A stretch of DNA of 64,000 nucleotides from Mobula hypostoma (Eukaryota), in NCBI RefSeq assembly GCF_963921235.1, contig NC_086108.1:52888001-52952000 (forward strand). Reading direction: 5' to 3'. This document shows positions 2,485-48,632 of the stretch, piece after piece. The stretch's first letter is position 1. Each line of letters begins with the position of its first letter. The position numbers were made by a program, and so were the translations under genes. The notes beneath the pieces are model-generated. The model did not search any database. It saw only the letters and a program-made list of their open reading frames with translations, and was not told the origin of the DNA.

Positions 2485-2655
2485 AATGGAAAGGAATAAA
2501 CAGTTGAAGCATCAGGTGAAGACTCTTCATCAGGACTTGGCCCGAAATGTCGCCTGGCTATTCCTCTCCATAGATGCTGCTTGACCTGCTGAGTTCCTCT
2601 GGCATTTTGTGTTTGTTGCTCTGGATTTCCAGTGTCTGCAGACTCTCTTGTGGTT
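2485..2655. mobile_element. Short decayed Penelope-like (Neptune-type) terminal fragment with internal inversion
   Basis: gactcttcatcaggac (minus-sense hammerhead remnant) joined to ggcccgaaatgtcg...tagatgctgcttgacctgctgagttcctc...ggatttccagtgtctgcaga, the terminus shared with other PLE copies in the window. Confidence 0.75.
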
Positions 2656-3169
2656 GTATCCTACAAAAAACAGTTATATGTGATTAGTTTCAGGATTTCT
2701 GTTAACCTAATGAAAAGCTAGTAAATTGTATAAGGAAAAAAAAAATTTAAAAAAAACAGGGACTTGTCCAGGAATTTAATTTTCTTTCGGAGGGGAATAT
2801 TAAATAAAATAATATCAAGTATATATACAATTATTTAATATAAATAATGATTATTAGGGATCCTGGCCCTTTACTCCTACCTGTACAAAACTCTGCAAAT
2901 TAAAGTCATTCACATTCCACAATGTACAATGTACTGAATAATATTCCCAAATATATTCTAAATAAAATCTATCCCTATAATCTCTCATGCCCCAATGCCA
3001 AGAAGGAGCTCATTACTTAATAATTACTTCTATTGAAAGAACATACAATGCTTCACTTGTTCTAAGAAAAAAAAAGAATATCCAGCCTTAGGAGTAATTT
3101 GTTGATCTTCAATTTATGCTCTTGTGCTCTGCAGTCTTGAAAATAAAAATGTAGAAGCAAAAATCATCA

Positions 3170-10819: not shown

Positions 10820-12135
10820 CACAAACATGAGAAAATCTTCAGATGCTGGAAATTCAAGCAACACACACAAAATGCTGGTGAATGCAGCAGGCCAGGCAGC
10901 ACCTAAAGGAAGAGGTACAGTCAATGTTTTGGGCCGAGACCCTTCGTCAGGACTAATTGAAAAAAGAGATAATAAGAGATTTGAAAGTGGGAGGGGGAGG
11001 AGGAGATCTGAAATGATAGGAGAAGACAGGAGGGGGAGGGAAGAAGCTAAGAGCTGGAAAGTTGACTGGCAAAAGGGATGCAGAGTTGGAGAAGGGGGAG
11101 GATCATGGGACAGGAGGCCCAGGGAGAAAGAAAGGGGGAGGGGAGCCCAGAGGAAGATGGAGAGCAGGCAAGGCGTAATTGTGAGAGGGACAGAGAGAGA
11201 AGAAAAAAAAGGGGGAATAAAAATAAATAAGGGATGAGGCAAGAAGGGGAGGAGGGGCATTAACAGAAGTTAGAGAAATCAATGTTCATGCCATCAGTTG
11301 GAGGGAACCCAGACGGAATATAAGGTGTTGTTCAGCCAACCTGAGTGTGGCTTCATTTTGACAGTAGAGGAGGCCGTGAATAGACATGTCAGAATGGGAA
11401 TGGGATGTGGAATTAAAAGGTGTGGCCACTGGGAGATCCTGCTTTCTCTGGCGGACAGAGCATAGGTGTTTAGCGAAACGGTCTCCCAGTCTGCATCGGG
11501 TCTCACCAATATATAGAAGGCCACATCGGGAGGACTGGACGCAGTATATCACCCCAGCTGACTCACAGGTGAAGTGTCGTCTCATCTGGAAGGACAGTCT
11601 GGGGCCCTGAATGGTGGTGAGGAAGGAAGTGTAAGGGCAGGTGTAGCACTTGTTCCACTTACAAGGATAAGTGCCGGGAGGGAGATTGGTGGGAAAGAAT
11701 GGGGGAGACGAATGGGCAACAGAGTCGCGTAGGGAGCAATCCCTGCGGAAAACAGAGAGAGCGGGGGGAGGGAAAGATGTGCTTAGTGGTGGGATCCCAT
11801 TGGAGGTGGCGGAAGTTACGGAGAATTATATGTTGGACCCAGAGGCTGGTGGAGTGGTAGGTGAGGACAAGGGGAACCCTATTCTTAGCGGGGTGGCGGG
11901 AGGATGGGGTGAGAGCAGATGTGCGTGAAATGGGAGAGATGTGTTTGACAGCAGAGTTGATGGTGGAGGAAGGGAAGCCTCTTTCTGTAAAAAAGGAAAA
12001 GCCTCATCCTGAGAGCAGATGCGGCGGAGACGGAGGAATTGCGAGAAGGGGATAGCATTTTTGCAAGAGACAGGGTGGGAAGAGGAATAGTTCAGATAGC
12101 TGTGAGAGTCCGTAGGCTTATAGTAGACATCAGTA
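10820..12135 (-). mobile_element. Penelope-like element (Neptune-type), 5'-truncated: GIY-YIG endonuclease remnant plus 3' pLTR
   Basis: Minus ORF 11286-11585 FTCESAGVIYCVQSSRCGLLYIGETRCRLGDRFAKH...VATPFN...EQHLIFRLGSL is a PLE GIY-YIG; pyrimidine-rich 3' region and a mutated hammerhead at about 10918-10955. Confidence 0.92.
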
Positions 12136-13674: not shown

Positions 13675-14155
13675 CAAAAACAACAGGAATTCTGCAGATG
13701 CTGGAAATTCAAGCAACACACATCAAAGTTGCTGGTGAACGCAGCAGGCCAAGCAGCATCTATGGGAAGAGGCGCAGTCGACGTTTCAGGCCGAGACCCT
13801 TTGTCAGGACTAACTGAAGGAAGAGTGAGTAAGGGATTTGAAAGCTGGAGGGGGAGGGGGAGATGCAAAATGATAGGAGAAGACAGGAGGGGGAGGGATA
13901 GAGCCGAGAGCTGGACAGGTGATAGGCAAAAGGGGATACGAGAGGATCATGGGACAGGAGGTCCGGGAAGAAAGATGGGGGGGGGTGACCCAGAGGATGG
14001 GCAAGAGGTATATTCAGAGGGACAGAGGGAGAAAAAGGAGAGTGAGAGAAAGAATGTGTGTATAAAAATGAGTAACAGATGGGGTACGAGGGGGAGGTGG
14101 GGCCTAGCGGAAGTTAGAGAAGTCAATGTTCATGCCATCAGGTTGGAGGCTACCC
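13675..14155 (-). mobile_element. Penelope-like (Neptune-type) 3' fragment with 12-bp TSD
   Basis: TSD atgccacttaaa at 13663-13674 and 14156-14167; highly similar to 10820-11310; hammerhead remnant CTGACAAAGGGTCTCGGCCTGAAACGTC on minus at about 13776-13811. Confidence 0.92.
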
Positions 14156-14854
14156 ATGCCACTTAAATCCAGGGGAAAGTTGCTTTTTATTATTTACTCA
14201 TTCTTCAGATCTGGGTTTTACAAGCAAGACTGGCATTTACAGCCCATCATTAATTGTCCTTAAGAACATAATGGTGAGCAATCTTCATGAATCAATCCAG
14301 TTCTTCTGTTGGTCCTAGCTATAGACTTGGTGCAGAATAGTACTTTGTCCCAGCTTTATCAATTTACTCCAACCTCAGAAGAACTTATACCTTTCACTGG
14401 AATTAGTGGTATAATCACAAGGACAGAGTTAAAAACAGGTAATCAAAAGTAAAAAATAAAATTATGGAGAAAAGGAAAGGATGAACAAGAAAAGCACAGA
14501 AAATGAAAGGAAATATTTATTTAAAAATGCATCTCTACCCTATAAATATCCCTCTCCATTAAAACCCAAATATAATAAAATATGTTTCCTTAATGAAATG
14601 TCATCAGATTCAATATCTAATCTTTGCAATAATTTTCCACCATTTTTCTTCCTGCCTTGCTGTAAAATACTCACAGCTTTGTTTGACCGTCTGCTGCAGG
14701 ATCATGTGAACTGTAAAATGTAGCCTATCCTCTTTTAGGTCAATTAGTCCATCCAACCCAACCTCATGCTCACATTGCAGCTAACACAGAAATACCCTTG
14801 GAAGGGGTCATCCAAGTGGGGTCTCTGCTGATGACCCAACAGACCACTGCAAAG

Positions 14855-16340: not shown

Positions 16341-18106
16341 CCCTCACACCCTCATAACTTTAATGTACATAAACATGGCATTGTACTTGGAATTCACTGT
16401 ATTCAGGATGCTGGCATTCCACTTCTCTGTTATCTTTACTACCAAAATTTTCATTGATATCTTCCCCAAGAAACTTTAACTTTCTTTGGAGTTGCTTCTA
16501 TAGTAGAAACACTATTTACACAAGTTAGGATTTTACCACACATCTGAGTGAGTGACATCCAGATATAGCAGGGACAGTCCTAACAAAACTCCTGATTTTT
16601 TGTGATGAATCATTTTTAGAATGCAATTTTTATTGCCAGATTTTTGACTGAATGTTGTACAAGGATATTACTGAACAATGACAAATCTAACAGTATGCCT
16701 TGATGCTCCAATAGAATTATGCATCAATAGTATTCTGTATTTGAAGGAGTTTTTCCTTCTCCTAATTTTCTTCTCACTTCACCTATATTATTTGTTGATG
16801 CAGAAATGTTACTCTGCAATCATTATAGCCCTGATACACATCTGGGATCAGCCCCTTCGATGACTGATGAGAAGCTTTACGCGCGCGTTTTCCCCGTTGA
16901 AACAAATGATAGAGAAATGCAGCATTTAAAGCAAAGTTGAACGCCTCATAAGAACTAAGTTTAGATTGCTTATCGTCACTTAGGCGGCTACCCAGGATAT
17001 CAGCATTTGACTGAACACAGCAGAAAAAGTGAATCTATTTATAGATTGGCCACTGACTTCTTGAAATGCCTCCAATCAATGGAATTTAAAAAAAAAAGTG
17101 GAAATGGGCCTTGCTTACACAAAGTTTTTCTCTGATTACACTAACTGCCTGAAGAAATACTTCTCAAAGGAAATCAAGATGAATGAGCAATTACATAGCA
17201 AACCTTTTCTCTTATAGTTCTTTTTTTCATTTTTTGAGCTTCTCAAGGCAAACACAGCTTAATTCAATGTTGTATCTTACCTACTTCGTTTCTCCCAATC
17301 ATCTATTCCACACCATACCACGAGAGCATTAAACACCAGTTCTGTGTAGAATTCCACTTCTTGGGGATAGATGAATAGATAAACATTTGAACTCACTGTT
17401 GCTGTGTAAGGCATTGGTCTGACCCCATCTGGAAGAACTGCTGGCAGTCCTGGTCAACTAACAGCAGGGAGGATATTGTTGCTCTTGAGAGGGCATGGAG
17501 CGAACAACCAGTTTGATTACAGGTCTCAGATACTGAACTTTAGAGAAACGGTGAAGAAAGTTGTGTTTATTCTCTTCTGGGAAAAAAGAGACTGAAATGA
17601 ACTCACAGAACTTCTCAGGGTTATAAAGTTCAGTTGTTATTTCTATGCTGAAGATTTCATACACCAGTAGGGACAGCTGAAAAATAAAGGACAGCTCAGC
17701 ATAAGATATATACTTGTGTTTTTACACAATTCCAGAAAGTTGCCAGTGAAGTTAGTGGAAGAGAATGCTATAATTGAATATAAAAGGGAATTAGATATGT
17801 GTTTATGGATGTACATATTGTTACTATGTGCTTTTACAGGGAAACAATAACTATGTTTAAAGCAATACTAAGGATGATGTAAGCACTGGGACTGATCTTG
17901 GGAGGACAATTGGATGCTTGGGAACAATGCATTTTAAGTTGATGCACTCCCATAATGAGCTCATGCCAAGAGCAACATAGCTCTGCCTTGCTCTTCCTAA
18001 TCACCCACAGAGCCTGATTATCCTTTATACTCCCCTGTCATATTAACATACAAATTAGGAGCAGAATTACACCACTTGGTCCCTCAGGCCAGTTCTGCCA
18101 TTTGTT

Positions 18107-20428
18107 AAGATTGTGGGTGATCTAACCGTAACCTAAACGAATATGCCACCGTTGTCGTGGACTTTATAAAAACAGTCATAGACAAGTATGCCCTCACAAA
18201 ACTATCCACAATCTTCCTGAAGCCCTGGATAAACCATGAGATCTGCAGTTTGCTGAGGGCCAGATCAGTGGTGTTCAAATCTGGTGACCAAGTAAAATAC
18301 CAGAGGTTCAGGAACGACCTCCAGAAAGCTATCTCATATGCAAAGTGGCAATTCCGGACCAAATTTGAATCACTGAAGGCAGCTCGGCTGCTGTGGGAAG
18401 GCTTGAATGCTGTCACCTCCTACAAAGTGAAACCAAGCGATATATAAGTGAAAACAAGGCTTTGCACCCAGGTGAATTCAATGCCTTCTTTGCTCACTTT
18501 GACAACCAAAAATGGAGGCACTTTCATGAACTCCTACAGCCACTGATGACCCTGTAATTTCGGTCTCTAATGCCAACCTTCAGGAGAGTTGACTCACAGA
18601 AAGCATCCAGCTGAGTCGGGGTCCCTGGCCGAGTGCTAAAGACCCATGCAGATCAACGAGCTGGAATGTTCACTGATATCTTGAACCTCTCACTTTGGCA
18701 GTCTGAGGTAGCCACCTGCTTTAAGCAAGCTTCAATTATAATGGAGCCTAAGAAGGATGTGATAACTTGCCTCACTGATTATCATCCAGTAGAACTTACA
18801 TCCACTGTGATAAAGTGCTTTGAAAGGTTGGTGATGAAACATCTCATTTCCTGCTTGTGCTTGAGAAATGACTTGGATCTGCACCAGTTTGTCTACGGTA
18901 ACATTAGGTCAACAGCAGATGCCATTTCAATGGCTCTTCACATAACCCCCGGAACGTCTGGACAGTGAAGATGCAGACATCAGGATGCTCTTCATTGACT
19001 CCAACTTGGCATTCAATACTATCATCCACTCAAAAGTAACCAATAAGCTTCAAGACCTTGGCCTCAGTATCTCCCTGTTCAACTGAATCCTCAATTTCCT
19101 CACTTGCAGACCCCAGTCAGTTCAGATCAGCAACAACATCTCCTCTACAATCACCATGAGCACAGGTGTACCACAAGGCTCTATGTTCAGCCCCCTGCTC
19201 TACTTGCTTAATACTTATGACTGTGAGGCTAAATACAGCCCCAATGCCATATTTAAGTTTGCTGACAACACCACTGCCATTGGCCGAATCAAAGGTGGTG
19301 ACGAATCAGCGTAGGAGAACGAGATTGAAAATCTGGATGAGTGGTGTCACGACCGCAACTTCTCACTCAATGTCGGCAAGACCAAGGAGCTGATTATTGA
19401 GTTCAGGAGGAGGAAACAGGAGGTCCATGAGCAAATCCTCACTCGGTGGAGAGGGTCAGCAATTCTGAAGTCTTTGGTGTTATCATTTTGGATGATCTGT
19501 CTTGGGTCCAGCAAACAAGTGCTATTACGATAAAAGCACAGAAGCGCCTCTACTTTCTTAAATGTTTGCGAAGATTTGGCATGCCATCCAAAACTTTGAC
19601 AAACTTCTATAAATATGTGGTGAAGAGTATATTAACTGGTTGCATCATGGCCTGGTATGGAAACACCAATGCCCTTGAACTGAAAAAACTATAAAATGTA
19701 GTGGATATAGCCTGGTCCATCATGGGTAAAGCCTCCCCACCACTGAGCACATCTACATGGAGCGCTGTCGCAGGAAAGTGGCATCCATCATCCAGGACCC
19801 CCACTATCTAGGCCATGCTCTCTTCTCGCTGCTGTCATCAGGAAGGACGTACAGGAGCTTCAGGACCCACGCCACCAGGTTCAGGAACAGTTATTTCCCC
19901 TCAACCATCAGGTTCTTGAACCAGTGCAGATGACTTTTCTCAACAACACTCACCCCATCACTGAACTGTTCCCACAACAGATGGACTCACTTTAAGGACT
20001 CTTTAGCTCATGTTCTCAATATTTATTGTTTATTTATTATTATTAATATTTGTTTATTTATTTGTATTTACTGTGAATACCCATACCACCAGGTTAAAGA
20101 AAAGTTATTAACCTTCAAACATCAGGCTCCAGAAGCAACAAAGATAACTTAACTCATCTCAACACTGAACTGATTCCAAAACCTATGGACTCACTTTCAA
20201 GTACTTTACAACTCATGTTCTCAATATTGTTTATTACTTATTTAGTTATTATTACTTTGTATTGTCTTCTTCTGCACATTGGTTGTTTGCCTGTCTTTGT
20301 GTGTAGTGTTTCAATAATTCTATTGTGTTTACTGTGAATGCCTGCAAGAAGAACTATCTCAGGGTTGTATATGGTGACATATTCATAATTTGATAATAAA
20401 TTTACTTTTAACTTTGAACTTGAACTTT
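18107..20428 (+). mobile_element. Rex1/Babar LINE, 5'-truncated, frameshifted, with a second diverged copy of the 3' end (about 20083-20428)
   Basis: ORFs KPWINHEICSLLRAR; CLTDYHPVELTSTVIKCFERLV; STADAIS; AQKRLYFLKCLRRFG..LTNFYK..SILTGCIMAWYGN; tail aataaatttacttttaactttgaacttgaacttt. Confidence 0.93.
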
Positions 20429-20677
20429 GTGGCTAGACCATCAATGAAGGATTAATTTGAATGCGATACTAATAAACACAACCTCAAACTCTTGTTCACT
20501 AAGAGTCCAGTTGCCAACCTGCTTTGACTGATCATCATACATTTCACTTGCTCACAATGCACAATTAAAACCCAACACAAAGAACACATTTTCAACCAAA
20601 TTTATCAATATATTCTTGTCATATTGCCTACATTTTGTTAACACTTTCTTCAATGTATCTTTGCTCTCTAGTGCTTA

Positions 20678-21045
20678 GCCATCTTCTTGGGCAGTCCCTT
20701 GACTTCAGATTTACTTCCATTTTAGTTTTGTTAGCTTTGAGTTAGCTGGTGAAGCCAACGAGGGACCACAGACTCTTTGACAGATAGTCTTGCAGGCTGG
20801 GCAGGTGATCATTTGTGGTGTGTTCCTTCTACCGCTGAAGGAGGTTTTCTGGGTGCTCCTTATAAATGGCCCCAGGGTTCCCAATGTTCTTTATTCTCTT
20901 CGAGAGGTCATGAATTCCATGAGCTGGATTGCTGTACTTCTTCAGGGAGATTTTGAGCATATTTACAAAACTTTCCTTTGCCTAGTCATCTCCTTCCACA
21001 ATAGAGCTTTAAATAAAGTGTGTTTGGGGAGGTTGGTGACACTCA
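20678..21045 (-). mobile_element. Old RTE-clade LINE 3' end (decayed)
   Basis: Minus reads gagtctgtggtccctcgttggcttcaccagc...ggaagtaaatctgaagtcaagggactgcccaagaagatg, resembling the RTE C-terminal C..IGL.SH motif and short 3' UTR; recognised from memory only. Confidence 0.5.
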
Positions 21046-21049
21046 TGCA

Positions 21050-22519
21050 AATTACCGGACCGGATGGAATTCCAGGGCGGGTACTCAGGATATACATGGC
21101 ACAACTGGCAGGTGTGTTTACAGACATTTTTAATCTCTCCCTCTCCCAGTGTAGAGAGCCCTCCTGCTTCAAAACATCCACCATTGTCCCTGTAACTAAA
21201 AAGACCAAGGTAACATGTCTGAATGACTGGTGTCCTGCTGCACTCACCTCAATAATAAACAAATGCTTTGAGAGGCTGGTCAAGGACTACATCTGCAGCT
21301 TGCTGCCACCCACACTGGACCCCCTACAATTCGCCGACTGACACAACCGATTAACAGACGACGCAATAGTCACAGCTCTATGTACCGTCCTTTCATATCT
21401 GGAGAAGAAGGATGCTTATGTGAGAATGCTGTTCTTCGACTACAGTTCAGCATTCAACACCATAGTTCCATCCAGGCTTGACAAGAAGTTCAGAGACCCT
21501 CAGCCTTCACCTTGCTTTGTGCAGCTGGATCCTGGACTTCCTGTCAGATCGCTGGCAGGTGGTAAGAGTGGGCTCCCTCACCTCTGCCCCTCTGACCCTC
21601 AACATAGGTGCCCATCAGGGCTGTGTCCTAAGCCCCCTCCTTCACTCTCTGTATACCCATGACTGTGTTGCTACCTACAGCTCCAATTTGCTAATTAAAT
21701 TTGCTGATGATACTACATTGATTGGCCTAATCTCAAATAATAACAAGGCAGCCTACAGAGAAGAAGTCATCACACTGACACAGTGGTGTCAAGAAAACAA
21801 CCTCTTCCTCGATGTCGCAAAAACAAAGGAGCTGATTGTGGACTACAGGAGGAATGGAGACAGGCAAACCCCTATAGACATCAATGGATCTGGAGTTGAG
21901 AGGGTGAACAGCTTCAAGTTCCTCGACATACACATCACCGAGGAATCTCACGTGGTCTGTACATACAGGCTGTGTAGTGAAAAAAGCACAACAGCGCCTA
22001 AGATGGTAAAAGAAGTTTGGTATGGGCCCCCAAATCCTAAGAACTTTCTACAGGGGCACAATTGAGAGCATCCTGATTGGCTGCATCACTGCCTGCTATG
22101 GGAACTCTATTTCCCTCAATCGCAGGATTCTGCAGAGAGTGGTGTAGACAGCCCAGCGCATCTGTAGATGTGAACTTCCACCTATTTAGGACATTTACAA
22201 AGTCGGGTGTGTAAAAAGGGCCTGAAGGATCATTGCGGGCCCGAGTCACCCCAACCACAAACTGTTCCAGCTGCTACCACCCGGGAAACGGTACCGCAGC
22301 ATAAAATCCAGGACCAACAGGCTCCGGGACAGCTTCTTCCACCAGGCCATCAAACTGCTTAATTCATGTTGATACAATTGTATTTCTATGTTATATTGCA
22401 CATACTATTTATTATAAAGTACCATAAATTCCACATTGCACATTTAGACGAGATGTAACGTAAAGATTTTTACTCCTCATGTATATGAAGGATATAAGTA
22501 ATAAAGTCAATTCAATTCA
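21050..22519 (+). mobile_element. Rex1/Babar LINE, RT domain plus 3' end, 5'-truncated (second subfamily)
   Basis: [10 protein letters not shown]...[63 protein letters not shown]; ends aataaagtcaattcaattca. Confidence 0.95.
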
Positions 22520-24064: not shown

Positions 24065-25208
24065 TAGAACATAGAAAACCTACAGCACAACACAGGCCCT
24101 TCGGCCCACAAAGTTGTGCCGAACATGTCCCTACCTTAGCAATTACTAGGGTTACCTATAGCCCTCTATTTTTCTAAGCTCCATGTACCTATCCAAAAAT
24201 CTCTTAAAAGACCCTATCGTATCCGCCTCCACTACCGTTGCCAGCAGCCCATTCCACACATTCACCACTCTTAGCATAAAAAACTTACCCCGACATCTCC
24301 TCTGTACCTACTTCCAAGCACCTTAAACCTGTGCCCTCTTGTGGCAGCCATTTCAGCCCTGGGAGAAAGCCTCTGACTATACACATGATCAATGCCTCTC
24401 ATCATCTTATACACCTCTATCAGGTCACCTCTCATCCTCCGTCGCTCCAAGGAGAAAAGGCCAAGTTCACTCAACCTGTTTTCATAAGGCATGCTCCCCA
24501 ATCCAGGCAACATCCTTGTAAATCTCCTCTGCACCCTTTTTATGGTTTCACATCCTTCCTGTAGTGAGGCGACCAGAACTGAGCACAGTACTCCAAGTGG
24601 GGTCTGACCAGGGTCCTATATAGCTGCAACATTACCTATTGGCTCCTAAATTCAATTCTACGATTGATGAAGGCCAATACACCGTATGCCTTCTTAACCA
24701 CAGAGTCAACCTGCACAGCTGCTTTCAGTGTCCTATGGACTCGGACCCCAAGATCCCTCTGATCCTCCACACTGCCAAGAGTCTTACCATTAATACTATA
24801 TTCTGCCATCATATTTGACCTATCAAAATGAACCACTTCACACTCAACATACATCAAAGTTGCTGGTGAACGCAGCAGGCCAGGCAGCATCTATAGGAAG
24901 CGCAGTCGACGTTTCAGGCCGAGACCCTTCGTCATGTTTCCTATAGATGCTGCCTGGCCTGCTGCGTTCACCAGCAACTTTGATGTATGTTGCTTGAATT
25001 TACAGCATCTGCAGAATTCCTGTTGTTTGCACTTCACACTCATCTGGGTTGAACTCCATCTGCCACTTCTCAGCCCAGTTTTGCATCCTATCAATGTCCC
25101 ATTCTAACCTCTGAGAGCTCTCTACACTATCCACAACACCCCCAATCTTTGTGTCATCAGCAAACTTACTAACCCATCCCTCCACTTCCTCATCCAGGTC
25201 ATTTATAA
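24065..25208 (-). mobile_element. Relatively young CR1 3' fragment, interrupted by a PLE fold-back at 24847-25029
   Basis: WVSKFADDTKIGG..WAEKWQMEFNPDECEV; QRDLGVRVHRTLK; QRRFTRMLPGL..LSELGLFSLERRRMRGDLIEVYK; 3' end (ttctatgttcta on minus) near-identical to 60321-60632. Confidence 0.95.
24847..25029. mobile_element. 183-bp fold-back Penelope-like mini-insertion with 13-bp TSD
   Basis: TSD cacttcacactca at 24834-24846 and 25030-25042; about 54-bp perfect inverted repeat around a truncated hammerhead. Confidence 0.93.
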
Positions 25209-25377
25209 GTTCTTGAGCAGTGTTGCCTTTCAGTGATCTGATAGTTATCCTGTCCTTGTTCCCCGAATGTATTAAGTTACTAGCGACTGGTGTCTCACTG
25301 TGCACAGTCCCTGCTTCTATACAAACTTCTAAGAAATTTACTGCTAGGATCTGAGTTTGTGAATGCAGCCCTGCAAT

Positions 25378-25830
25378 GTCAAAGTTCAAAGTTTAAAGTA
25401 AAATTTATTATCAAAGTACATATATATCACAACCCTGAGACTCATTTTATTGTGGGCATACTCAATAAATCCGTAATAGAATAATAACCGTAATAGAACC
25501 AATGGAAGACCACACCAATTTGGGCGTTCAACCAGTATGCATAAGACAACAAACCATGGAAGTACAAAAAGAAAGAAATATTAAGAAATAAATAATCAAC
25601 AAATATTGAGAACATGATATAAAGAGTCCTTGAAAGTGACTCCATAGGTTCTGGGAACATTTCATTGATGGAGCAGGTGAAGTTATTCCCTTTGGTTCAA
25701 GAGCCTGATGGTTGAGAGGTAATAACTGTTCCTGAGCTGGTGGTGTAAGTCCTGAGCCTCCTGTACCTTCTCACCGATCGCAGCAGCAAGAAGAGAGCAT
25801 GGCCTGGGTGGTGGGGGTCCCTGATGATGG
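25378..25830 (-). mobile_element. Rex1/Babar 3' tail
   Basis: Minus ORF SIIRDPHHPGHALFLLLRSVRRYRRLRT; tail ataataaattttactttaaactttgaactttg. Confidence 0.85.
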
Positions 25831-26089: not shown

Positions 26090-26280
26090 ATGAAATACAC
26101 ACAAAATCCTGGAGGAACTCAGCAGGCCAGGCAGCATCTGTCAAAAAGAGGATGAAGGGCCTTGGGCTGAAACATTGACTGTTTACCCTTTTGCATAGAT
26201 GCTGCCTGTCCTGCTGAGTTCCTCCAGCATTCTGTGTGTATTGCTTTGGATATCTAGTGTCTGGAGATTTTCTTGTGCTA
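26090..26280. mobile_element. Fold-back PLE terminal fragment nested in a decayed minus-strand SINE (about 25900-26326)
   Basis: acacacaaaatcctggaggaactcagcaggccaggcagcatct inverted against agatgctgcctgtcctgctgagttcctccagcattctgtgtgt; hammerhead remnant gatgaagggccttgggctgaaacatt; aaaatg on both flanks. Confidence 0.85.
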
Positions 26281-28521
26281 AAAATGGAGTCAGCAGCTCC
26301 ACTAGCTACCACGCCACTGTGCTGCCAATCTGTGAAAATCTTCATCATGATTATCTTTCTGTTGATCCTTAGTGCCTGGAAAGTTTGCCCTTCTTATGTA
26401 CCCTGAAGGACCCAGTGGTTAGCCTGTCATGAGGGGAAGAACTAGGGTGGGTATGTGAATGTAGGAGATGCATATTTAGAATTAACTATAGTCTGTAACT
26501 TTCAGAACATTGCCTCATGAGATGGAAGTAAGATGTCAGGCACAAGATCAGTTTTGGGAATGTGATAGTTTTTGTTTATTCGGACCCTTTGCTGCCACAA
26601 CCTTATAGAAGCATCTAGCACTGTGATCTTGATTTAGATTACAACATACAGCTACAGTGGTCTCTCCTGACCTTGATAGTGCTCAATTGCTCCTGCCAAA
26701 GAGGGATGTATATCAATGAAATTCAGGCGTATTTTTGGGTGCAGGATCTCAAGGTTGAAGAACTGGCAATCTGTGCAAACTGTGAGCCTTCAATATGAGA
26801 TTTTTTAGTGCGCAAGATGAAGTAAGGTATGTCCTTTATGATTAAGGCTGTTGGTAAGTAAATGAACTTAGCAGTGTACAGAGCCGGTGCTGCAGTTGGT
26901 CTAAAATACAGAATTTTAAGCTGTGTCCACTAATCATGATCTCTCGTGTTAATTTCTTGCAACACTGGTTCTGTGCTGTACTGATCTCAACTGATAACTG
27001 CTCCCACTGTAGTGGTCTGGCGGCCATCCTAACTCCCTATGGTTTCATCTCTTTTCCATCCAATTGCGTAGTACTTTGTTCAAAACACTATAGCCTGGTC
27101 TCTCCTATCCTATGCCATGCCATTCTTCACTATTTCCCAGGCTAGATCAATTAGCTATTCCTATTTTAACTGGTGTTAATAAGGTTTCTTACTGGACCCC
27201 CAGCAGGCATGCTGGTAAAGCAGCGAAGCCATTGTATTGAGGAGGCAGCACTGGACTTTGTAAGCAGCTTGTAATGCAATCAGTTGGTGCACATTAATAC
27301 ATATTACTATCCCTGCACCCATGTTTTGGAGTAACCAACGTAAACCTCCTCATGTTTGTTTCAGGGGAGGAATTCAGGAGCTTCTATGTTTGCTTCACCA
27401 TTATGATGGATGGTGCACATTACGAACACATATGAGATATACTATGTACAGGATTGTCTGTTTTGTGCATCATTGAATCTCTATGCACAAAATATTCAAA
27501 TTAAGTAAGAAAGAGAATCACGGAATCTACACATTATATATAAACTATTTCTTGCTGGCAAAAAAAACAAAGATCATACCTTTCTGGATAGGAGAGCAGT
27601 TTTAAATGAATCAATTTTTCAAGGTGGTTTCTTTCATCTTACAGCCCTTCTCATCTTGTTTTGTATCATTATTGCTCCAACTCTTTTGTATTCTGCCCAT
27701 CTTTCTCTGGTTGTCATTATTCAGTGCCCATCAACAGATAAGATATATTTGGGAAAAACCTATCAGGTAGGCTGGACACCGGATAATTGAGGTGATGACT
27801 AGTGCGAGCAAAAGACAATTGATACTGATAGTGTCAGAGGGTATATCTAAAAGGATCTGTACCCTCCATCTCCTTTGCCCTTTTTTTTCTCATAATGGTA
27901 GAATATGGAATAACTTGGACATATCTGATATATGTCAAGTCCTGAGACAAATATACATAGCAGTTCCTGAGAGAGAGAAAAAAAACTGCGGCAATAGAGA
28001 TAGCTGTTTCTATTCATTTACATTTCAATAGGTTACAGAACACACGTTAAAGTGATGACCTGAATTTAAATATTTTAAATGGAGTCAACTATCATTAAAA
28101 AAAAAGGTGGTTTCGAAAACCTTTCATTCCGTATATCATTTTCAATTGTGCAAATAGTATGATATGTTTTAATTTATCTATAATACCACTAACAAAAGCT
28201 TTGCTGATTTTTAAAGAATGTAGCCCTTTTGTAATCATAATTTACTGGAAATGAATCTCTAAAATTATTTTTTTTCTACATAAACTGCCCCTATTTACTT
28301 TCTCTGCTCCAAGTGTCCTAAGTTTTCCTCAGTTAGAAAGATACAACGGACTGACATAGAGAAAATTAATTGAAATATTACAAAAATGTTACTTTTCTTT
28401 GTCTTTCTCTCATGGTCATGGTGTGCAGCCACATAACTCCAAAAGGAAGGAAAAGTAGGAGGGTTTGATTTCTAGGTTCTTGAATTTCTAAATAAAGCTC
28501 AATGTTTTGCTCTCTTTTCTC

Positions 28522-28660
28522 CATCCTCATGAACGGTCTCGGCCTGAACCATCGACTGTTTACTCTTTTCCATAGATGCTGCCTGACCTGCTGAGTTCCT
28601 CCAGCATTCTGTGTGTTTTGCTTTGGACTTCCATCATCTGCAGATTTTCTTATGTTTGTA
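28522..28660 (+). mobile_element. Short PLE terminal fragment starting at a decayed hammerhead
   Basis: cctcatgaacggtctcggcctgaaccatcgactg...tagatgctgcctgacctgctgagttcctccagca...catctgcagattttct. Confidence 0.85.
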
Positions 28661-29573
28661 ATTTTTTAAAATTCTTTACAGGATCTTCTCTCTCAAAGAT
28701 TCTGACTATTACTAGGATACTGCACTACAAAGAGTAGGTACTCGGACAATTAACCATGTAGTGAATTTACATGTATGACTCTAGACAGCGGAGACAGGAT
28801 TTTCAACTTGCATAGCCGCTCACTGATGACACCAGAATGTTGAAGTAAGGGACTTCAATGAACAGTAATGCATGATTTTTAGACTCCTTACTTAAAGAAG
28901 TTTTAATCATTTTAATGTTTTCAGCATTTCTTTTAAAGGGTCCCATATGATATTGACTGTTTATGAATATCAAAGACCTTCACAAAGTTTCAATAACACT
29001 GACATCTTTGGCAATGGTTCGCTTGAGTGCAGTACCTCAATGCCTGTCAAAGCCATTTTGTTACTGCAACAAGTCATTTATGCTGAGAGTTTCAGCCCTG
29101 AACTGTGCCTCTTTGGACCACTGTGCTCTGGACCACGCTGAAGGAAAGGATGTGGTCCACAGGTAGGCAACCAGTGATCTTCAAGTGGTGAAAGATCTGT
29201 TTCAATAAATGTCAATGTTCAAATTGTCTTGTTATATATCAAAGACTTAGAAATGCAGCAACCTTTCCTCCTCACTGCTCACAAGGATAATTGAGGTTGA
29301 ACCTTGGACGAGTGGAAGTGGCTCTATGAAACACAACTTCCTGATATTGTTTATGCTTTCACCTTTGCCTTTCAGATTCTGCCAGTGATCGTACTGCTGC
29401 TTGTCAGGTTCCCAGCGCAAACTGCTGATGCTTATTTTGTGAAGATTCAGTCTGCTCCCAGGCTTTCTCAACACAAGTTTTCCAGGTCAACTGTACTTCC
29501 TTCCACCAATGAAGCCACAGTCAATAGGCAGAATTGAACAGGAGTATTAGGAAGTTTCTCTAGGAGGAGGTAC

Positions 29574-29609
29574 AGTCGACGTTTCGGGCCGAGACCCTTC
29601 GTCAGGACT
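29574..29609 (-). ncRNA. Minimal type-I hammerhead ribozyme motif (intact core)
   Basis: Minus: AGUC-CUGACGA-A-GGGUCUCGGCCC-GAAAC-GUC-GACU; stem I AGUC/GACU, stem II GGGU/GCCC, palindromic ACGU stem III. Confidence 0.85.
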
Positions 29610-29965
29610 AACTGCAAGAAGAGCTAGTAAGAGATTTGAAAGTGGGAGAGGGAGGGGAGATCCAAAATGATAGGAGAAGACAGGAGGAGGAGGGATGGAG
29701 CCAACAGCTGGACAGGTGATTGGCAAAAGGGATATGAGAGGATCACGGGACAGGAGGCCCAGGGAGAAAGAAAAGGCGGGTGGGGGAACCCAGAGGATGG
29801 GCAAGGGGTATAGTCAGAGGGACAGAGGGAAAAAAAGGAGAGAGAGAGAAAGAATGTCCCTGGATCCTCACGTATCCCTTTTGCCAATCAACTGTCCAGC
29901 TCTTGGCTCCATCCCTCCCCCTCCCCCTCCCACTTTCAAATCTCTTACTAGCTCTTCTTTCAGTT

Positions 29966-30001
29966 AGTCCTGACGAAGGGTCTTGGCCCGAAACGTCGAC
30001 T
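29966..30001 (+). ncRNA. Minimal type-I hammerhead ribozyme motif (intact core)
   Basis: AGTC(29966-69) CTGACGA(29970-76) A GGGTCTTGGCCC(29978-89) GAAAC GTC(29995-97) GACT; predicted cleavage after C29997. Confidence 0.85.
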
Positions 30002-30232
30002 GTACCTCTTCCTAGAGATGCTGCCTGGCCTACTGCATTCACCAGCAACTTTGATGTGTGTTGCTTGAATTTCCAGCATCTGCAGAATTCCTCGTGTTTG
30101 CGTATTAGGAAGTTTGTGCATTTAGATGGCAGGAACTGAGGGAGTGCCTGTGCTCTTACTCCTCAGCTTATTGGTATATAGTTGGGGAGAAAGTTCCTAT
30201 TCATGATGTCAAGTCTTCCCAGCATACATAAC

Positions 30233-30312
30233 TAGAGGTTCCCGACGTTTTTTATGCCATGGTCCCCTACCATTAACCGAGAGATCCGTGGACCTCAGGA
30301 TGGGAACCCCAG
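30233..30312. mobile_element. About 80-bp MITE, hAT/Charlie-like
   Basis: Imperfect TIRs tagaggttcccgac / gatgggaaccccag resembling CAGGGGTTCCCAAC; 8-bp TSD is degraded. Confidence 0.55.
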
Positions 30313-30387
30313 TGTTAAACCGTCGCAGATCTCAACTCCATTTTGCTGGGTGCCTCTGGGCTTTTCCAAAGCAGGCCAGGCAGGCAA

Positions 30388-30537
30388 GAGCAAACAAGAG
30401 AAAATCTGCAGGTGCTGGAAATCTAAGCAACACACACTGAAGTCCTGCTGAAGGGTCTCAGCCCAAAACGGCGGCAGTACTCTTTTCTATAGATGCTGCC
30501 TGGCCTGCTGAGTTCCTCCAGCATTTTGTGTGTGTTG
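30388..30537. mobile_element. Short PLE terminal fragment with inversion
   Basis: Minus-sense terminus (aaacaagagaaaatctgcaggtgctggaaatct) joined to plus-sense agtcctgctgaagggtctcagcccaaaacg...; gcaggca on both flanks. Confidence 0.85.
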
Positions 30538-32499
30538 CAGGCAGACAATATATTACTTCAGTATACCGAGTCTTGATCAGAATGCTTGCTTTGCGTTTGT
30601 ATATGAGCCACATTATGCTTGGTGTCCAACAAATCATACAGAGGTGGAAAACTTATAATACAGGTACAGCTAATGACATAGCCTATCATGTCTGTACCAG
30701 TAAGGAAAATCCTACCTTCCAGCTCTACAGGCCACAGGTCCTGTGGATCTCACTCTTCCTTTAGCTTGTCTTGTTCTTCCACCCTCTGTTTTTTGACTAG
30801 CAACATTGTATTCCAATTCTAAGCACCTTTGTCTGGAAACAACACGTTTGGGAAGACACCTTGAAGTCAAAAGCATTGCATCTTGATATTATGGAAAACA
30901 TGTTAAAATTGCTTATAGACAAAACAAACAAACAATTAATCTATATGTAGTTGATAATCCCTATAAATAGTGATGTTTCATTTCTTAGGCCACACACACC
31001 AAACAGGCAGCATTAGTGTCGAATCAGCATTCCTTGCTAATTAACAACTTGATCTGCTGCTCTAAAACATCTGTTAATGAGCTGTGAATCTCTTCACCAA
31101 CACAGCATTGTACAATTCAACAGAGTGGGCATGTAACATTCTCTAATGTGTCTAACCCAATTTCATGCTATTGATCTTTGACATTTGCAAATGGATAACT
31201 TTGATCTATTTTAATATCACTAAAAATGGCCCAAACTCAATAGAGCATGCAAGCAGAAAGGTGTGTTTTGTGCATAATGCTTAACTTGAACATGGGGTTA
31301 GGAGTTGCATAATTACTGTACTTCAATGTAGTTTGGAAAACTGTAGACATATCAATCTGTTCCCTTGCTTTTCCAGATTTTCTCTTTCCTATTCATTAGA
31401 CTCAATCTAAAAATGCCTGCTAGTAATGCAACAGCCAAATCTTGAAATACTCTTTGTTTTGAGATTGCTCCATACATTTCTCCAGCTTGTTTGACCACTG
31501 GAATGAAGAACCACAATTGACGTAAATTCCAGTCCCAGAATATGTGGAACCTGAATATTCAGGCTCTATGCCTTTAACTTCCAAAGAGAAGACATTTATC
31601 CGTAGCAGTAGCATGAAGCATAAGTCATTGTATTAATCATCTTGAAATGGAATTGAGGATGAATTTATATCTCCTTGTTGGTTTCACTAATTAATATTAT
31701 TATAAGATGATTTCCAATTTATGCTGTTTCTACTTTCAAATTAACTGGAAATATGAATATAAATGTTATAGAAAGCCACCTGCAATCTAATTTCTATCAA
31801 CCATTTTTTATTGATTATGATATAATATTAAACAGTTTAATAACTTTTTAAACTATCTTCTACCCTCTCCAAAGTATTGACTATTATTTTCATTAAATGC
31901 AAACTTTCCTCTGTCGGTTGTTTAATGGTCATTCTTGTATGTAAATCAGAAATGTTAAGAGTTGCTGGGTTGTATGTGCCAGATGGAAATTACAAGTAAG
32001 TCTTAATTTAAAATGACCCATGTCATTAAAGACAACTTTTCCAACTGGGATCACTCAGTAATGATTAAAAGCTGGAATTTGATTAATATTTGAGATTATT
32101 GTCAATTAGTAAATTACTTCTTGATAGTTATTACTATCTTTAAACCTACTGACCTTTGTTTTCATTTATAAAGTGTCACATCAGCAAGGTGCCAGAGCTG
32201 TGTTTCCAATTGTGAATGATACCTCTGCAAAATTAATGAATGCTGAAAGTAAGAGATAAATTTGGTAAAGTCAATGGAAATGAAATTTGGGACATGTGAA
32301 AGAATTGTGACTGATTTAATATTGCCCATTTCACACTGCTAAACAAAGTCAACCATTGCCCCCATTGTAATTTGATGAGATCCTTCAAAAGGGATTATCA
32401 AATTCACCTCAGTACCTTTTTCCCAATCTGTGATATTTTATATTCTACTGAGTACAGTTTTAGGCTCCCTATCTAAACAAGGATGTACTTGCCAGAGAG

Positions 32500-33040
32500 A
32501 TGGACACAGCAGGTAGTGCTGCTGGCTATGGCTCCAGAAACATACATTTGATCATGATCTCCATACCTGAGTTTGTAGATTGTCCTTGTGACTGTGGCAA
32601 ACATTCCAAAGGAATGCTGGTTGGTAGGTAAATTGCCCGCTGTCAAACTACTCCTAACCTAAGTTAGTGGTGGGAGAATTGGTGTAGTAGAACAGAGAAT
32701 ATGTTGTATGTGAATAACTAGGCAAATGGGATTAATGGTTTTGCTATGAGTACAAGTGGTGGCATAGTGGCATCAGTGCTGGACTTCGGAGCGAAGGCTC
32801 CCGAGTTCAGACCCAGCCGGCTCCCCAGGCACACTTTCCATCCGTGCTGGGTTGAGTGTTAAGCTAGCAACTTGACCGCGTAAAAAAAAAATGCCTGCTA
32901 TAGAAACATCAACAGTGAAAAGTTGATGGCCTATGCTCTCTCGTGAGCTTAAGAGGCAATTTCCTTTCCGCTTTTATGAGCACAAGCTTCATTTGATGAG
33001 CCAAATAGCCTCCTCTATGTTGCGGGAAAATATGAGAATT
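32500..33040 (+). mobile_element. Old V-SINE-like element hosting a younger SINE
   Basis: Decayed head (gacacagcaggtagtgct), gagtttgtagattgtcc..cattccaaag; tail resumes after the nested SINE (gatgagccaaatagcctcctct). Confidence 0.6.
32757..32974 (+). mobile_element. tRNA-derived SINE with RTE-like body and tail, 12-bp TSD
   Basis: TSD tatgagtacaag (32745-32756) / tatgagcacaag (32975-32986); A box tggcatagtgg, B box gagttcagacc. Confidence 0.85.
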
Positions 33041-39464: not shown

Positions 39465-40197
39465 TTACACAAGAAATTCTGCTGATGCTGGAAATCCAAA
39501 GCAACACACGCAAAATGCTAGAGGAACTCAGCAGGTCAGGCAGCATCTATAGAAATGAGTAAACAGTTGATGTTTTGAGCCAAGACCCTTCCTCAGGACT
39601 GGAAAGGAAGGGGGAAAATGCCAGAATAAAAAGGTGGGGAGAGGATAAGTAATCTGATAGGGAAGGAGAATAGACTATAGGAGAAAGGGAAGGAGGAGGG
39701 GCACTGGGAGGAGGAGAATGGCAGGTGAGAAGAGGTAAGAGGCCAGAGTGGGGAATGGAAGAAGTGGAAAAGGGGGCGAATTCTTTTTTACTGCAAATAG
39801 AAGTCAATGTTCATGCCATCAGGTTGGAGGCTACCCAGACAGAGTACAAAGTGTTGCTCCTCCACCCTGCGAGTGGCCTCATCGTGACACAAGAGGAAGC
39901 CACAGACCGACATGTTGGAACAGGAAATGGATTTAAGTGGGTGGCCACCAGGAAATTCCGCTTCTGGTGCTCAACTAAGCGGACCCCAATTTATGACGGG
40001 TCTCTCCATTGTACAGGAGGCCACACCGGGAGCACTTTACACAACCACAGCAGGTGTTGCTTCACCTGGAAAGATTGTTTGGGGTCCTGAGTGGAAGCGA
40101 GAGAGAAGGTGAATGGGTAGATGTAGCACATTGATTACTTTCAGAGATAAGTGTGTGCCAGGAGGGAGATTAGTGGGGAGGGACGAATGGACAAGGG
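39465..40197 (-). mobile_element. Penelope-like (Neptune-type) 3' fragment with decayed GIY-YIG
   Basis: Colinear with 10820-11720 (gaagtcaatgttcatgccatcaggttggagg...ttcacctggaaagattgtttggggtcctga); hammerhead remnant CTGAGGAAGGGTCTTGGCTCAAAACATC on minus at about 39565-39600. Confidence 0.9.
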
Positions 40198-41936
40198 TAC
40201 ATTGCAAACCACAGATTTTTTGCTTCTATTTTAACCAGTGGGATTCAAAGTTCAATGACAAGCATTGAACAAGTTGGTATGTGAGATAACCTTACCTTTT
40301 GTTCTTATGGTGCGATGCAATTATCACCTATCTGCCCAAAGATCACTCCTGTATTCCGTATGCTTCATTCCCATGGAAATACTTCTAAAATTGCTTCTTC
40401 TAGATAATTTACTTTTGAAGTACATTCTGACTTAATCACCTTCAGAGCCATCTTCAGGCTCCCAAGCTGATCATGAGTTTACTAATGCTTCTACCTGACT
40501 CCACCTAACATGTCAATCTTTTAACTAATAAATGACATCTCGCTTTAACTCCAGACTCTGTCCAAAAGCCTCCTCTCCAATTCATAGCAGCGTCTACGTA
40601 TCCTAATCTTCAAGTGAAACCAGGTCCATTTATCAAACTTTCCTTGTGTTTATTCACAAGTGTATTTTGCTGGTCACTTTGGGCCCTAGCCCCAGACTGT
40701 GACTTCAGTGTTTTTCTACTCCACCTCATTTTATCCTAATATTCTTAGAGTCCCCTCTCATGTTGTTATGCCTCCTTTCATTTCTGCCCTTTCGTGTACC
40801 ATGTCTCATAAATCTCTGCTCAGTACCTTCAGCACTCCTCCCATCAGCTTCCAAAATTCGCTCCCGGCACTGCTTTTCTCCCCTTTCTTTAAGACATTCT
40901 TAAAATCGACATTATTGAGCACGATCTGCTTTAATTGTTTCTTGATATAATGCTCTTGGTAACTGCTCTGGGCAATTTTACTGTTAATGCAGGTGGTTGT
41001 TTATGTGCAGTATGACTACCTGCTACAACCTGCATAATAATGTTCCACCGGCCAGTAACAGAATACCACAGGCTAAAATCTGTAAGCAAATCACCTGCCG
41101 ATGCAAATATTCTGGGTGGTATTTTTGAAGAAAGCTAAAAGAGGATAGAAACTTGAAAGAGAACTTGGTGCAGTAGTTCACCTCCAATTAGACTAGAGTG
41201 AGGGATTTGATACACTCGGGGAAATTGTAAGGAATGACAATTATATTTCTATATAGTAAATGTTTTTGTCAACCTTTTGCCTAACTCTTTCTAAGAGTTA
41301 GCACTGCAAAATTAATTTTCCCAGACTCACAAAGAATTTAAAGTGGCTTGTATGAGAAATGGATTACAGTTGATTCTGGTTAATTGGGCCGTTGGTTTAT
41401 CGGGACAGCCGCTTACCTGGGGCAACTCTTAAAAGAACAAAAACTAATCAAGAAAATAGCTGGGATTCCCTTTGTTTATTTGGGACACCATGTGGTTTAA
41501 TTGGGACCGGAGACTGTTGCTATCATCAGTCACATGTATTTGTGTGCCTGTTAGGCTCTACACCATGCTTAGAGTGAATAGTTTTGCGACAGCATCAGTT
41601 TCATGTGTTTGTGTTCGAAAAGCAATGATCTTTGTCACCGATAGTGGGCGAAGAATAAGCAGTAAGACAGTTCAGAACTGTTTTGTTCACTGCAGCTTCA
41701 AGCATTCATAATTGGGGTTCTGCCCCTGGAAGCACCGTTCAGTTATTTGCAGTTCATTTTGTACAAACATCACTTCCTAGTCGTGAGTTTTTATTTACAT
41801 CATTTCTTGTACAGGTTAATTTGGATTTCGACATGGAGCAAACACAACAGCCATCTCCATCCACTCTTTGTTTGTTTGACCTTTATACAGCAATATCTGT
41901 GAAAAAGGATCTAGTTCTTTCCCAGTGTATATGATG

Positions 41937-42348
41937 AATAAACTCTTCTCAGGCTTCTAGCCGGGTACAGGTATCGACTTTAAATGATGTTTCAATGACA
42001 AACTCCACCATCTTCATCAGGGCATGTCTAATCAATAGGCCACACCAATGGGTTTTGGGAAGGCCTGGTGAAGGAAGCCATTGAAATAAAACTAGATGAG
42101 ATTAATTTTAACAAAGACTAAGGTCTTGCTCTAAGTAAGAACTGTAATTTGATTGTAAACGAGGTGGGACAGTGGAAGCCTGATTGGATAAGGCCTAACC
42201 AATCAGGAGGGACAGACAATGAGGGTATATATACCACCTAACTAGACATGCCCAGGTATCATCTTCGATGAAGATGGCAGAGTTTGTCATTGAAATGTCA
42301 GCTAAAATCAATGCCTGTACCCAGCTGGATGCCCAAAAAGAGTTTATT
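41937..42348 (+). mobile_element. Penelope/Poseidon-type PLE 3' fragment with inverted pLTR copy
   Basis: Encodes LVKEAIEIKLDEINFNKD*GLALSKN (C-terminus of a Penelope GIY-YIG); 41937-42030 is the reverse complement of 42243-42348; both arms carry hammerhead motifs. Confidence 0.85.
41986..42020 (-). ncRNA. Hammerhead ribozyme motif, second PLE family (partly decayed)
   Basis: Minus: CUGAUGA-A-GAUGGUGGAGUUUGUCAUU-GAAAC-AUC; partner copy on plus at about 42265-42299 (tcgatgaagatggcagagtttgtcattgaaatgtc). Confidence 0.65.
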
Positions 42349-44669: not shown

Positions 44670-45170
44670 TGGTCAAAGTGTATAAAATCATGAGGTCAAT
44701 AGATAGGGCGAGTGCACTCAAGTCCTGATGAAGGGTCTCAGCCTGAAACATCGACTGCTTATTCCCATCCATGGATGCTGCCTGACCTGCTGAGCTCCTC
44801 CAGCACATTGTGTGTATTGCTCTAGATTTCCAGTATTGGTATTGCTTCTTGCGTCTCAATTCTTTTATTCCCAGGGTTAGGGAATCAAGAACTACGGTGC
44901 ATAAGTTTTAGGTGGGAAGGGACATACTTAATAATAAATGAAAGGAACAATATTTTTACACAAAGAATTGTGGAATATGCTGCCAGAGGAAATGGCTGAG
45001 GGAGGTATAATAACAGTTCTTAAAAGGCAGTTGGACAGGTACACGGATTGGAAAGCTTTAGAAAGTTTTGGGCCAAATGCTGGCAATTGGGACTAGCTTG
45101 AATGGGGCATCTTGGCAACACCAACCAGTTAGGCCAAGGGGCCTGTTTCTATTCCGTGTTACTCTATAAT
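44670..45170 (+). mobile_element. CR1 3' tail interrupted by a PLE terminal fragment (44721-44857)
   Basis: Host gtgtataaaatcatgagg..gatagggcgagtgcactca | ttcttttattcccagggttagggaatcaagaac; insert begins agtcCTGATGAAGGGTCTCAGCCTGAAACATCgact. Confidence 0.88.
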
Positions 45171-47513: not shown

Positions 47514-47660
47514 CTCTGATCGGAGTTGCAGGCGTCTCTGCGCCCCCCACCTCTCGGCCGACCGGCCCCACGCGCCAGGCCCCCGATCGTCAGCTGCCAG
47601 TGCCCGAAACTGGCTGCGTTGTTGGATCCTCTCCCCCTCCCTCCCCCCATCCCGGTCCGG
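47514..47660 (-). promoter_or_regulatory. CpG-rich promoter-like segment / candidate non-coding first exon
   Basis: Most conspicuous non-TE CpG-dense GC-rich patch in the window; ends at donor GAG|gtaagc (intron starts 47513); no upstream polypyrimidine acceptor on minus and no ATG in the CpG-rich part. Confidence 0.45.
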
Positions 47661-48632
47661 CCTTCCGCTTCCCCTCATAAACCTCCCCACATCCCCTCCA
47701 CCACTTCCTCCCCCTCCCTACCTCCCCTGCACCCCTCCTCTCCCAACTCCCAAACCTTCCCCTCCCCTCTTTTCACCCACACAGCTCAACTCCTTCCAGC
47801 TCACTTACCCTGTACCTCCCCACACACTACCAATCCCCAAATATTTCCCTCCCCACTCACTCCCCACACCCCACCCCTCTCCCTGACACCCACCATCACC
47901 CCCACACACCCACAACTCCACTTCATCCTCGCTCAATCTCGCCATGACAACCCCACCCTCACAACCCATCCCCCAACCCTCTCAACACCTCTGCATCCCA
48001 CACTGACCACCCCATTTCTCCCCCTCCCACTCTCTGTCTCTATTACCCCCCACTCCACTCTGTCACCACCTTCCTCCTCACCTCTCTCCCCCACACCTTC
48101 CCCTCACCTAACCCCTGATTTCCCCTCACCCCACCTCCCCCTCACCTCCTTCCTCTCACCTCCCTTCCCCCATACCACCTCCCTTCCCCCACACCACCTC
48201 CCCACCACAACTCCTCCCTCCCCACCACACCACACCACACCACACCACCTCTCTCTCCCCTCACCACCACCCTTCTGCCACACCTCCTCCCTCCCCTCAC
48301 ACCACCTCCCTCCCTCACACCTCCTCCCTACACCTCCTCTCTCTCCCACACCTCCCTCCCCTGTACCTCCTCCCTTCCCCTCATACCTACTCCCACCCCC
48401 TCACCTCCCTCCCCCCTCACCACCTCCCTCCCCCACATCTCCTCCCTCCTCCACCAAACCAACTCTCTCCCCCCACACCACCTTCCTCCTCTCTGCCCAC
48501 CATCTTCTTCTCCCTACCGCCTTATGCCTTCCATCTTCACCTATACTCCCCCACCCATCTCTAACTACTCTCGACCCTCTGTCCCCCAGCCCTTCTGTCC
48601 CCTCTCCCGCCACACACAATCTCCTACCCATG
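47628..48632. repeat. About 1-kb C-rich low-complexity tract (G-rich on minus)
   Basis: Almost devoid of G on plus; degenerate CCT/CCA/CCCT units. Confidence 0.95.

Follow-up and report, generated by a model that had tools for sequence, protein, structure and literature searches.

Two opposite-strand hammerheads in a ray genome lie in what is very probably an ordinary truncated Penelope-like insertion with staggered arms

A 5'-truncated copy in inverted orientation, with a tail of 30-40 bp on one side, is typical of Penelope-like elements (PLEs) (PMC8557442), and such units lie between target site duplications (TSDs) described as 8-10 bp long (PMC3846280). Inverted terminal repeats of variable size have been described for Penelope itself (PMC2377424), and dual minimal hammerheads on opposite strands, about 100-700 bp apart, are known from Schistosoma (PMC4209133). 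Opposite hammerheads in head-to-head PLE pieces are therefore an already known layout, in print. In vitro, the anole Poseidon element PAc nicks both strands of its target and extends each of them, and a dimeric form is predicted (PMC11167929). Non-LTR retrozymes have been reported in one cartilaginous fish (bioRxiv 10.64898/2026.07.22.740005); our literature search, judged by title, found no PLE description for rays or elasmobranchs.

Here we analysed one such insertion in a 64-kb window from the ray Mobula hypostoma (the whole stretch of DNA examined, 64,000 nt). A sequence-only reading had described a 544-bp insertion with a perfect 14-bp TSD, and both the sequence and a repeat search bear this out: 29544-29557 and 30102-30115 are identical at 14/14 positions and enclose the 544 bp of 29558-30101. 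Arm coordinates were measured along the sister copy at 14156-13676 (minus strand), with the hammerhead cleavage site as zero, and the parts of the insertion are as follows.

29544..29557, plus strand: left copy of the TSD, 14 bp (repeat search)
29558..29857, minus strand: inverted arm, a 5'-truncated 3' pLTR piece, -277..+21 from the cleavage site
29574..29609, minus strand: minimal type-I hammerhead, intact core, C17 at 29578 (descriptor match)
29855..29857, no strand: head-to-head junction, a 3-nt microhomology (TGT) common to both arms
29855..30101, plus strand: direct arm, a 5'-truncated 3' pLTR, -176..about +102/+104 from the cleavage site
29940..29967, plus strand: pyrimidine-rich stretch with a terminal AG, at the 5' edge of helix I (73-85% pyrimidine, 5/5 copies examined)
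29966..30001, plus strand: minimal type-I hammerhead, intact core, C17 at 29997 (descriptor match)
30064..30101, plus strand: optional tail of ~38 nt, right arm only
30102..30115, plus strand: right copy of the TSD (repeat search)

The arms were recovered as inverted blocks at 29549-29657/29918-30026 (109 nt, 94%) and 29683-29752/29855-29924 (70 nt, 90%), and match sister pLTRs at 262/297 and 220/245 positions. They are identical at 154/164 shared columns, with 10 differences plus a 32-bp deletion in the direct (right) arm between short direct repeats at about 29915-29924; contigs have loose ends at 29915 and 29924, that is, at this deletion. The two pieces are pLTR arms, as had been proposed, but their fold-back is not symmetric (-277..+21 against -176..+102). 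Instead they are staggered, the left arm reaching 101 nt further upstream and the right about 82 nt further downstream, with an overlap of 198 nt. The left (inverted) arm carries neither the tail nor the remainder of the pLTR end; its outer end (+21) matches neither usual family end (+66, +102), and it stops about 45 nt before the shorter of these. Gene conversion between the arms was considered and is unsupported (outer vs inner differences 4/100 vs 6/64, p = 0.19), and separate templates for the two arms are not needed, as for 9/10 differences there is no sharing between an arm and a sister copy that would split the family.

The derivation of these pieces from a PLE is upheld by an endonuclease-bearing sister copy, one of several family loci in the window.

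2486..2656: head-to-head locus, older, degenerate
10822..12134, minus strand: sister copy, a 5'-truncated PLE with a frameshifted C-terminal ORF, then pLTR, hammerhead and tail
13678..14157, minus strand: sister copy with the whole 3' pLTR, from ORF end to tail; the ruler
24845..25030: head-to-head locus, 13-bp TSD, tail on the right arm only
26092..26279: head-to-head locus, older, the sole one with nested arms
30390..30538: head-to-head locus, older, with its tail confined to the left arm, TSD about 7 bp

The sister ORF at 10822..12134 covers the post-RT region, a CX4CxxC linker and a GIY-YIG-like endonuclease, for which the Pfam GIY-YIG match (E = 0.003, 18.3 bits) falls under the 22.6 cut-off. 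Relatives at E<=1e-15 numbered 9/387 candidates, 8 of the 9 carrying names from Mobula hypostoma or Hypanus sabinus and showing 62-84% identity. The CX4CxxC linker recurs in 3/4 aligned relatives and reads CX3CxxC in the fourth; CCHH residues are present in all four, and one Cys and one His kept in 4/4 are missing from the window copy. An endonuclease is thus found in the sister copy and its relatives, and the insertion at 29558-30101 itself is without an ORF; no full-length element or RT domain of the family was seen in the window. By the criteria of PMC8557442, and on the strength of the linker motif, the element would count among the Neptune-type EN+ PLEs with a C-terminal endonuclease.

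The ends of family copies fall at +66/+67 or at +100..+104, and these two positions define the ~38-nt tail. The ten family loci add up to 4,153 bp (6.5% of the window) and are head-to-head in 5/10 cases. Junctions, arm lengths and TSD lengths differ among all five head-to-head loci, with TSDs of 14, 13, 7, 6 and 6 bp, the short ones possibly due to chance. Staggered arms occur in 4/5 of them, the ends of the three older loci being approximate, and the arms at 24845-25030 are identical at 54/54 shared bases. An older, more diverged PLE subfamily copy with endonuclease remains and its own pLTR, hammerhead and tail lies at 39466-40287 (minus strand). Family copies often seem to begin at the 5' edge of the hammerhead, those at 30441 and 44721 exactly there; joint starts fall at 29602-29611 in 10 of the 15 contig joints listed, and loose ends pile up at 29609 in three runs. 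Older subfamilies that diverged upstream could explain part of these hammerhead-edge starts.

A minimal-hammerhead descriptor run over both strands of the 64-kb window returned three matches, at 29966-30001 (plus), 29574-29609 (minus) and 44721-44756 (plus), and had 0 matches in 30/30 block-shuffled windows. The ACGU palindrome is present in the two hammerheads of the insertion and broken in the third match. Both cores reported from the insertion are therefore complete and correctly placed, with C17 of the plus-strand copy at 29997, and each has the CUGANGA and GAAA core segments and an NUH site according to the descriptor. The extra base after A9, the G10.1-C11.1 pair and the palindromic 15.2-16.2 positions are all visible in the sequence and are traits described in PMC4209133, with which the earlier assignment (minimal type I, a palindromic stem III needing a dimer, an extra A9 base) agrees. 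The CpGs, said to be retained, are so mostly (9/10 in the two hammerheads) but not wholly: loop II of the plus hammerhead carries one CpG-type change and reads UUGG, against UCGG in the minus hammerhead and in two sister copies. An isolated 46-nt piece gives pair probabilities of 0.87-0.94 for helix I and >0.99 for helix II. Rfam covariance models gave no hammerhead family at E<=5 in 27000-33000 or at E<=10 in 29940-30040, a non-match likely caused by the absent helix III; weak Rfam matches to miRNA and snoRNA families were dismissed as far below gathering scores. The two opposite-strand hammerheads are separated by 356 bp and face outward, so that on either strand the antisense arm is made first, as had been claimed. 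The pyrimidine tract ending in AG is found again at 29608-29635 (minus) and in sister copies; as an intron end of D. virilis Penelope has been mapped to helix I (PMC4209133), this tract may, by analogy, be a candidate conserved 3' splice site.

Conservation and covariation of core and stems across copies, on which the sequence-only reading had staked its ribozyme proposal, were absent in the window, in tests of little power. Differences between the arms are not significantly rarer inside the hammerhead than outside it (1/36 vs 9/128, p = 0.69), and CpGs are kept at 9/10 sites in the two hammerheads, compared with 9/15 in three further young copies (p = 0.18). Among 10 aligned pieces of the 12 that bear hammerheads, 0 pairs had changed on both sides, in a set that is one family of decayed copies with little power, the two degenerate arms at 2.5 kb being left out. 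Stem pairing in these 10 copies was 83.3%, and 500/500 shuffles reached at least this value; changes in the hammerhead among copies are largely CpG decay. The hammerheads are no better kept than neighbouring arm bases. That only these two are fully intact among the 12 hammerhead-bearing pieces of the window speaks against neutrality; in our reading they are very probably intact because the copy is young, not because they were selected.

The insertion resembles canonical EN+ Neptune PLEs, as described in PMC8557442 and PMC3846280, in its head-to-head pLTR pieces, ~38-nt one-sided tail, variable TSD and microhomology at the junction, and its sister copy shares with Neptune PLEs a C-terminal GIY-YIG domain with a CX2-5CxxC linker. 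It differs from canonical EN+ Neptune units in that the present copy has no ORF and its tail-less arm falls ~45 nt short of the usual end. The hammerheads are like the minimal PLE type of PMC4209133: type I, with a 4-bp helix I, an extra base between 9 and 10.1, the G10.1-C11.1 pair, a palindromic loop-less helix III and an opposite-strand partner; helix II is 4-5 bp here, unlike the 7-8 bp of Schistosoma in the same source. As in PAc, two preferred 3' ends define the tail and the hammerhead lies upstream of both (PMC11167929). A further likeness is to the non-LTR retrozymes, described as non-coding, PLE-derived and hammerhead-bearing (bioRxiv 10.64898/2026.07.22.740005). Those, however, are tandem direct repeats in which folding as a dimer is possible, whereas the fold-back unit here is inverted and no tandem array is present at the locus.

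Taken together, this analysis suggests that the locus is very probably an ordinary 5'-truncated, dead-on-arrival insertion of an abundant Neptune-type PLE, with no indication of a special function. The endonuclease would have made a staggered cut at the target, followed by two priming events for reverse transcription, one at the usual tail end and the other some 20 nt beyond the hammerhead. The two cDNAs would have ended prematurely and then been joined, the junction carrying the 3-nt microhomology. The hammerhead lies about 100-135 nt from the 3' end of the element, and long-armed inverted insertions therefore carry two opposite hammerheads.

The staggered arms may be the footprint of double target-primed reverse transcription by a dimeric PLE protein with microhomology joining, which we posit tentatively, as a possibility that falls short of probable. 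A single snap-back nests one arm within the other, and since each arm here holds unique sequence, we infer two primings; priming on the two nicked strands accounts for the stagger better than a simple snap-back does. The last 9 TSD bases match the template at the start of the left arm at 6/9 positions, a level reached at 4/239 positions, and this is a weak hint of internal priming. LINE-1 twin priming is similar in placing an inverted 5' piece within one TSD, with junction microhomology and a partial second-primer match, but twin-primed LINE-1 pieces barely overlap, in contrast to the 198 nt seen here; a search of the open literature on twin priming and inverted Penelope copies gave nothing on point by title. 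By analogy, two-strand extension by a PAc-like dimer would make such head-to-head products, although PAc belongs to a clade other than Neptune and the main text of PMC11167929 draws no link between two-strand extension and inverted pLTRs. If true, double priming would explain the inverted pLTR and one-sided tail in one step, and would tie both to the two-strand extension of PAc in vitro. How PLEs come by their inverted ends could be tested cheaply through the staggered-arm pattern, the sole forward-looking element of this analysis.

A single cDNA that folded back (or an antisense template that primed itself), with later or concurrent loss of 101 nt from the right arm at the centre of the palindrome, is a serious possibility too, though one we would stop short of calling probable. 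Head-to-head PLE repeats have been interpreted in print as products of self-priming (PMC3846280), the arms at the 26-kb locus are nested, and the right arm already carries one microhomology deletion; joints such as 29607-29952, with 2 shared letters, come from other copies and fit a short loop. Snap-back on its own nevertheless yields nested arms, and any other outcome would take a further event at each locus, whereas the arms here each hold unique sequence (101 nt and about 82 nt) and 4/5 loci are staggered. We consider it very unlikely that the fold-back unit is a non-autonomous mobile element, MITE-like or retrozyme-like, copied whole: junctions, arm lengths and TSD lengths all vary across the five window loci, the arms form no terminal inverted repeats, and the hammerheads are inverted, not tandem as in retrozymes. 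The staggered arms and the unequal TSDs, the short ones possibly due to chance, do not match a MITE, which would have terminal inverted repeats, a fixed TSD length and a uniform size. What could speak for a mobile unit are some head-to-head joints whose summed depth far exceeds that on the single-copy flank, such as 29607-29954 (421.8 against 26 in X1), depths that give no copy number. That the palindrome is an assembly artefact is scarcely credible. It is true that no contig spans the whole insertion and that none has 31 letters on both sides of a junction, but the TSD is perfect, the arms differ at 10/164 sites plus an indel, and contigs enter the insertion from the flanks by 26/24 letters with 0 differences in X1 and by 29/30 in X5.

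The sequence-only reading had further suggested that a long hairpin could silence cleavage or feed ADAR or Dicer. The hairpin part stands: the full insert has a folding energy of -342 kcal/mol on the plus strand and -336 kcal/mol on the minus strand, with z about -24 and 0/100 shuffles as stable, and in the full fold-back the pairing probability of the hammerhead stems is 0.0000 on both strands. On this modelling, RNA transcribed across the locus would form a long double-stranded hairpin that leaves both ribozymes unfolded. That the locus is unusual or regulatory is not supported, given that the layout is published and typical of PLEs, that it recurs at 5/10 family loci, and that the hammerheads lack covariation and are preserved no better than the remainder of the arms. 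Stem III has no loop and cannot form intramolecularly, which leaves little activity to be silenced; a minimal PLE hammerhead did not cleave when tested as a monomer and cleaved little when tested as a dimer (PMC4209133), and the dimer requirement of minimal hammerheads is summarised in PMC6765202, citing Lunse et al. We therefore regard a selected switch, in which the paired arms silence the ribozymes or supply ADAR or Dicer for the host, as extremely unlikely. The very stable hairpin on both strands, its abolition of the hammerhead stems, the apparent retention of the insertion across one species split and the small RNAs reported from PLE copies in rotifers and flies (PMC3846280) are all compatible with it. 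Against it, there is no excess conservation of the hammerheads and no compensatory change in 10 copies, and the whole right arm alone already gives a helix I probability of only about 0.02. The weak cleavage described above points the same way, as does the anole hammerhead, which depended on its protein and could be dispensed with when insertion was assayed in vitro (PMC11167929). If the ordinary insertion we favour is transcribed, its ribozyme-burying hairpin would be a passive consequence, as for an inverted repeat of any abundant retroelement.

Also against such a switch, Pfam found no host-gene domain in 276/358 window ORFs of at least 55 aa, a scan that left out 82 ORFs in repeat blocks and would miss short exons. 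The Pfam matches were of RT/LINE type, plus two sub-threshold ones: F-box_4 at 18121-18444 and a TT_ORF2-like match on the insertion. The single-copy stretch at 29250-29534, left of the insertion, has open frames of 79 aa (minus) and 78 aa (plus) with no Pfam match. An exon candidate at 29250-29486 (minus) was set aside as having no relative among longer proteins, a weak argument, and indels in a third organism (organism C, below) at 29250-29534 argue against coding. Run X15, guessed to be RNA, has no cover on the unique flanks, and X9 has none at 30125-30181; neither counts as evidence. A>G differences were rejected as signs of editing, as the tallies for X15 resemble those for the DNA runs and stem from variants within the family, and contigs cannot show editing.

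Contigs aligned to 28700-30380 in four runs numbered 135,410 (X1), 84,380, 39,459 and 10,174, with depth concentrated on repeats, so that it gives no copy number here. In X1, 12 of the 15 joints listed (884 in total) link the minus arm at 29595-29611 to the plus arm, as other head-to-head copies would be expected to do. The joint 29607-29966, in which both arms start at the hammerhead, is present in the DNA-type runs X1, X5 and X9. Starting in unique flank, contigs of organism A (X1) reach 26 and 24 letters into the insertion without a difference, and those of organism B (X5) 29 and 30 letters; organism B diverges by 1.1% in the left flank and by 1.7% over three contigs. Both fall short of our bridging rule of 31 letters either side of a junction, and lend support, not proof, to what looks like an insertion common to organisms A and B. 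A contig of organism C (about 5% different) is exact to 29557, after which its last 12 letters misfit the insertion; it looks like an empty site, with the insertion absent there. Being present in A and B and empty-like in C, the insertion probably dates between those two splits. The copy had been called probably recent, and it is young for the genome, but it is not brand-new, as a second species seems to have it too and a third to lack it. Each arm lies about 3% from the family majority; among the 40 of 88 difference rows listed, 7 sites set the left arm apart from the X1 majority and 2 sites the right arm. At 6.1% divergence, a 14-bp TSD would still be perfect with a probability of 0.41. To the right of the insertion, another high-copy repeat with a short inverted structure occupies 30236-30330, with a depth peak at 30239-30295.

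As a single locus this insertion matters little, being one among a great many truncated copies of a familiar type of element, with a published layout. It does provide a well-preserved natural ray PLE hammerhead, usable in dimer-cleavage tests. Ray genomes appear rich in young head-to-head PLE insertions, and counts of staggered vs nested arms among them could settle the origin of inverted pLTRs. Elsewhere in the window, an inverted pair at 41929-42356 (90-nt arms, 80% alike, about 250 nt apart) is unrelated to this PLE family; it may be what is left of a head-to-head insertion from a different PLE family, with hammerhead-like words recognised by eye. Decayed LINE-type reverse transcriptase fragments lie at 18100-22065, 25000-25400 and 56900-62200, and a long C-rich low-complexity tandem region extends over 47400-48700.
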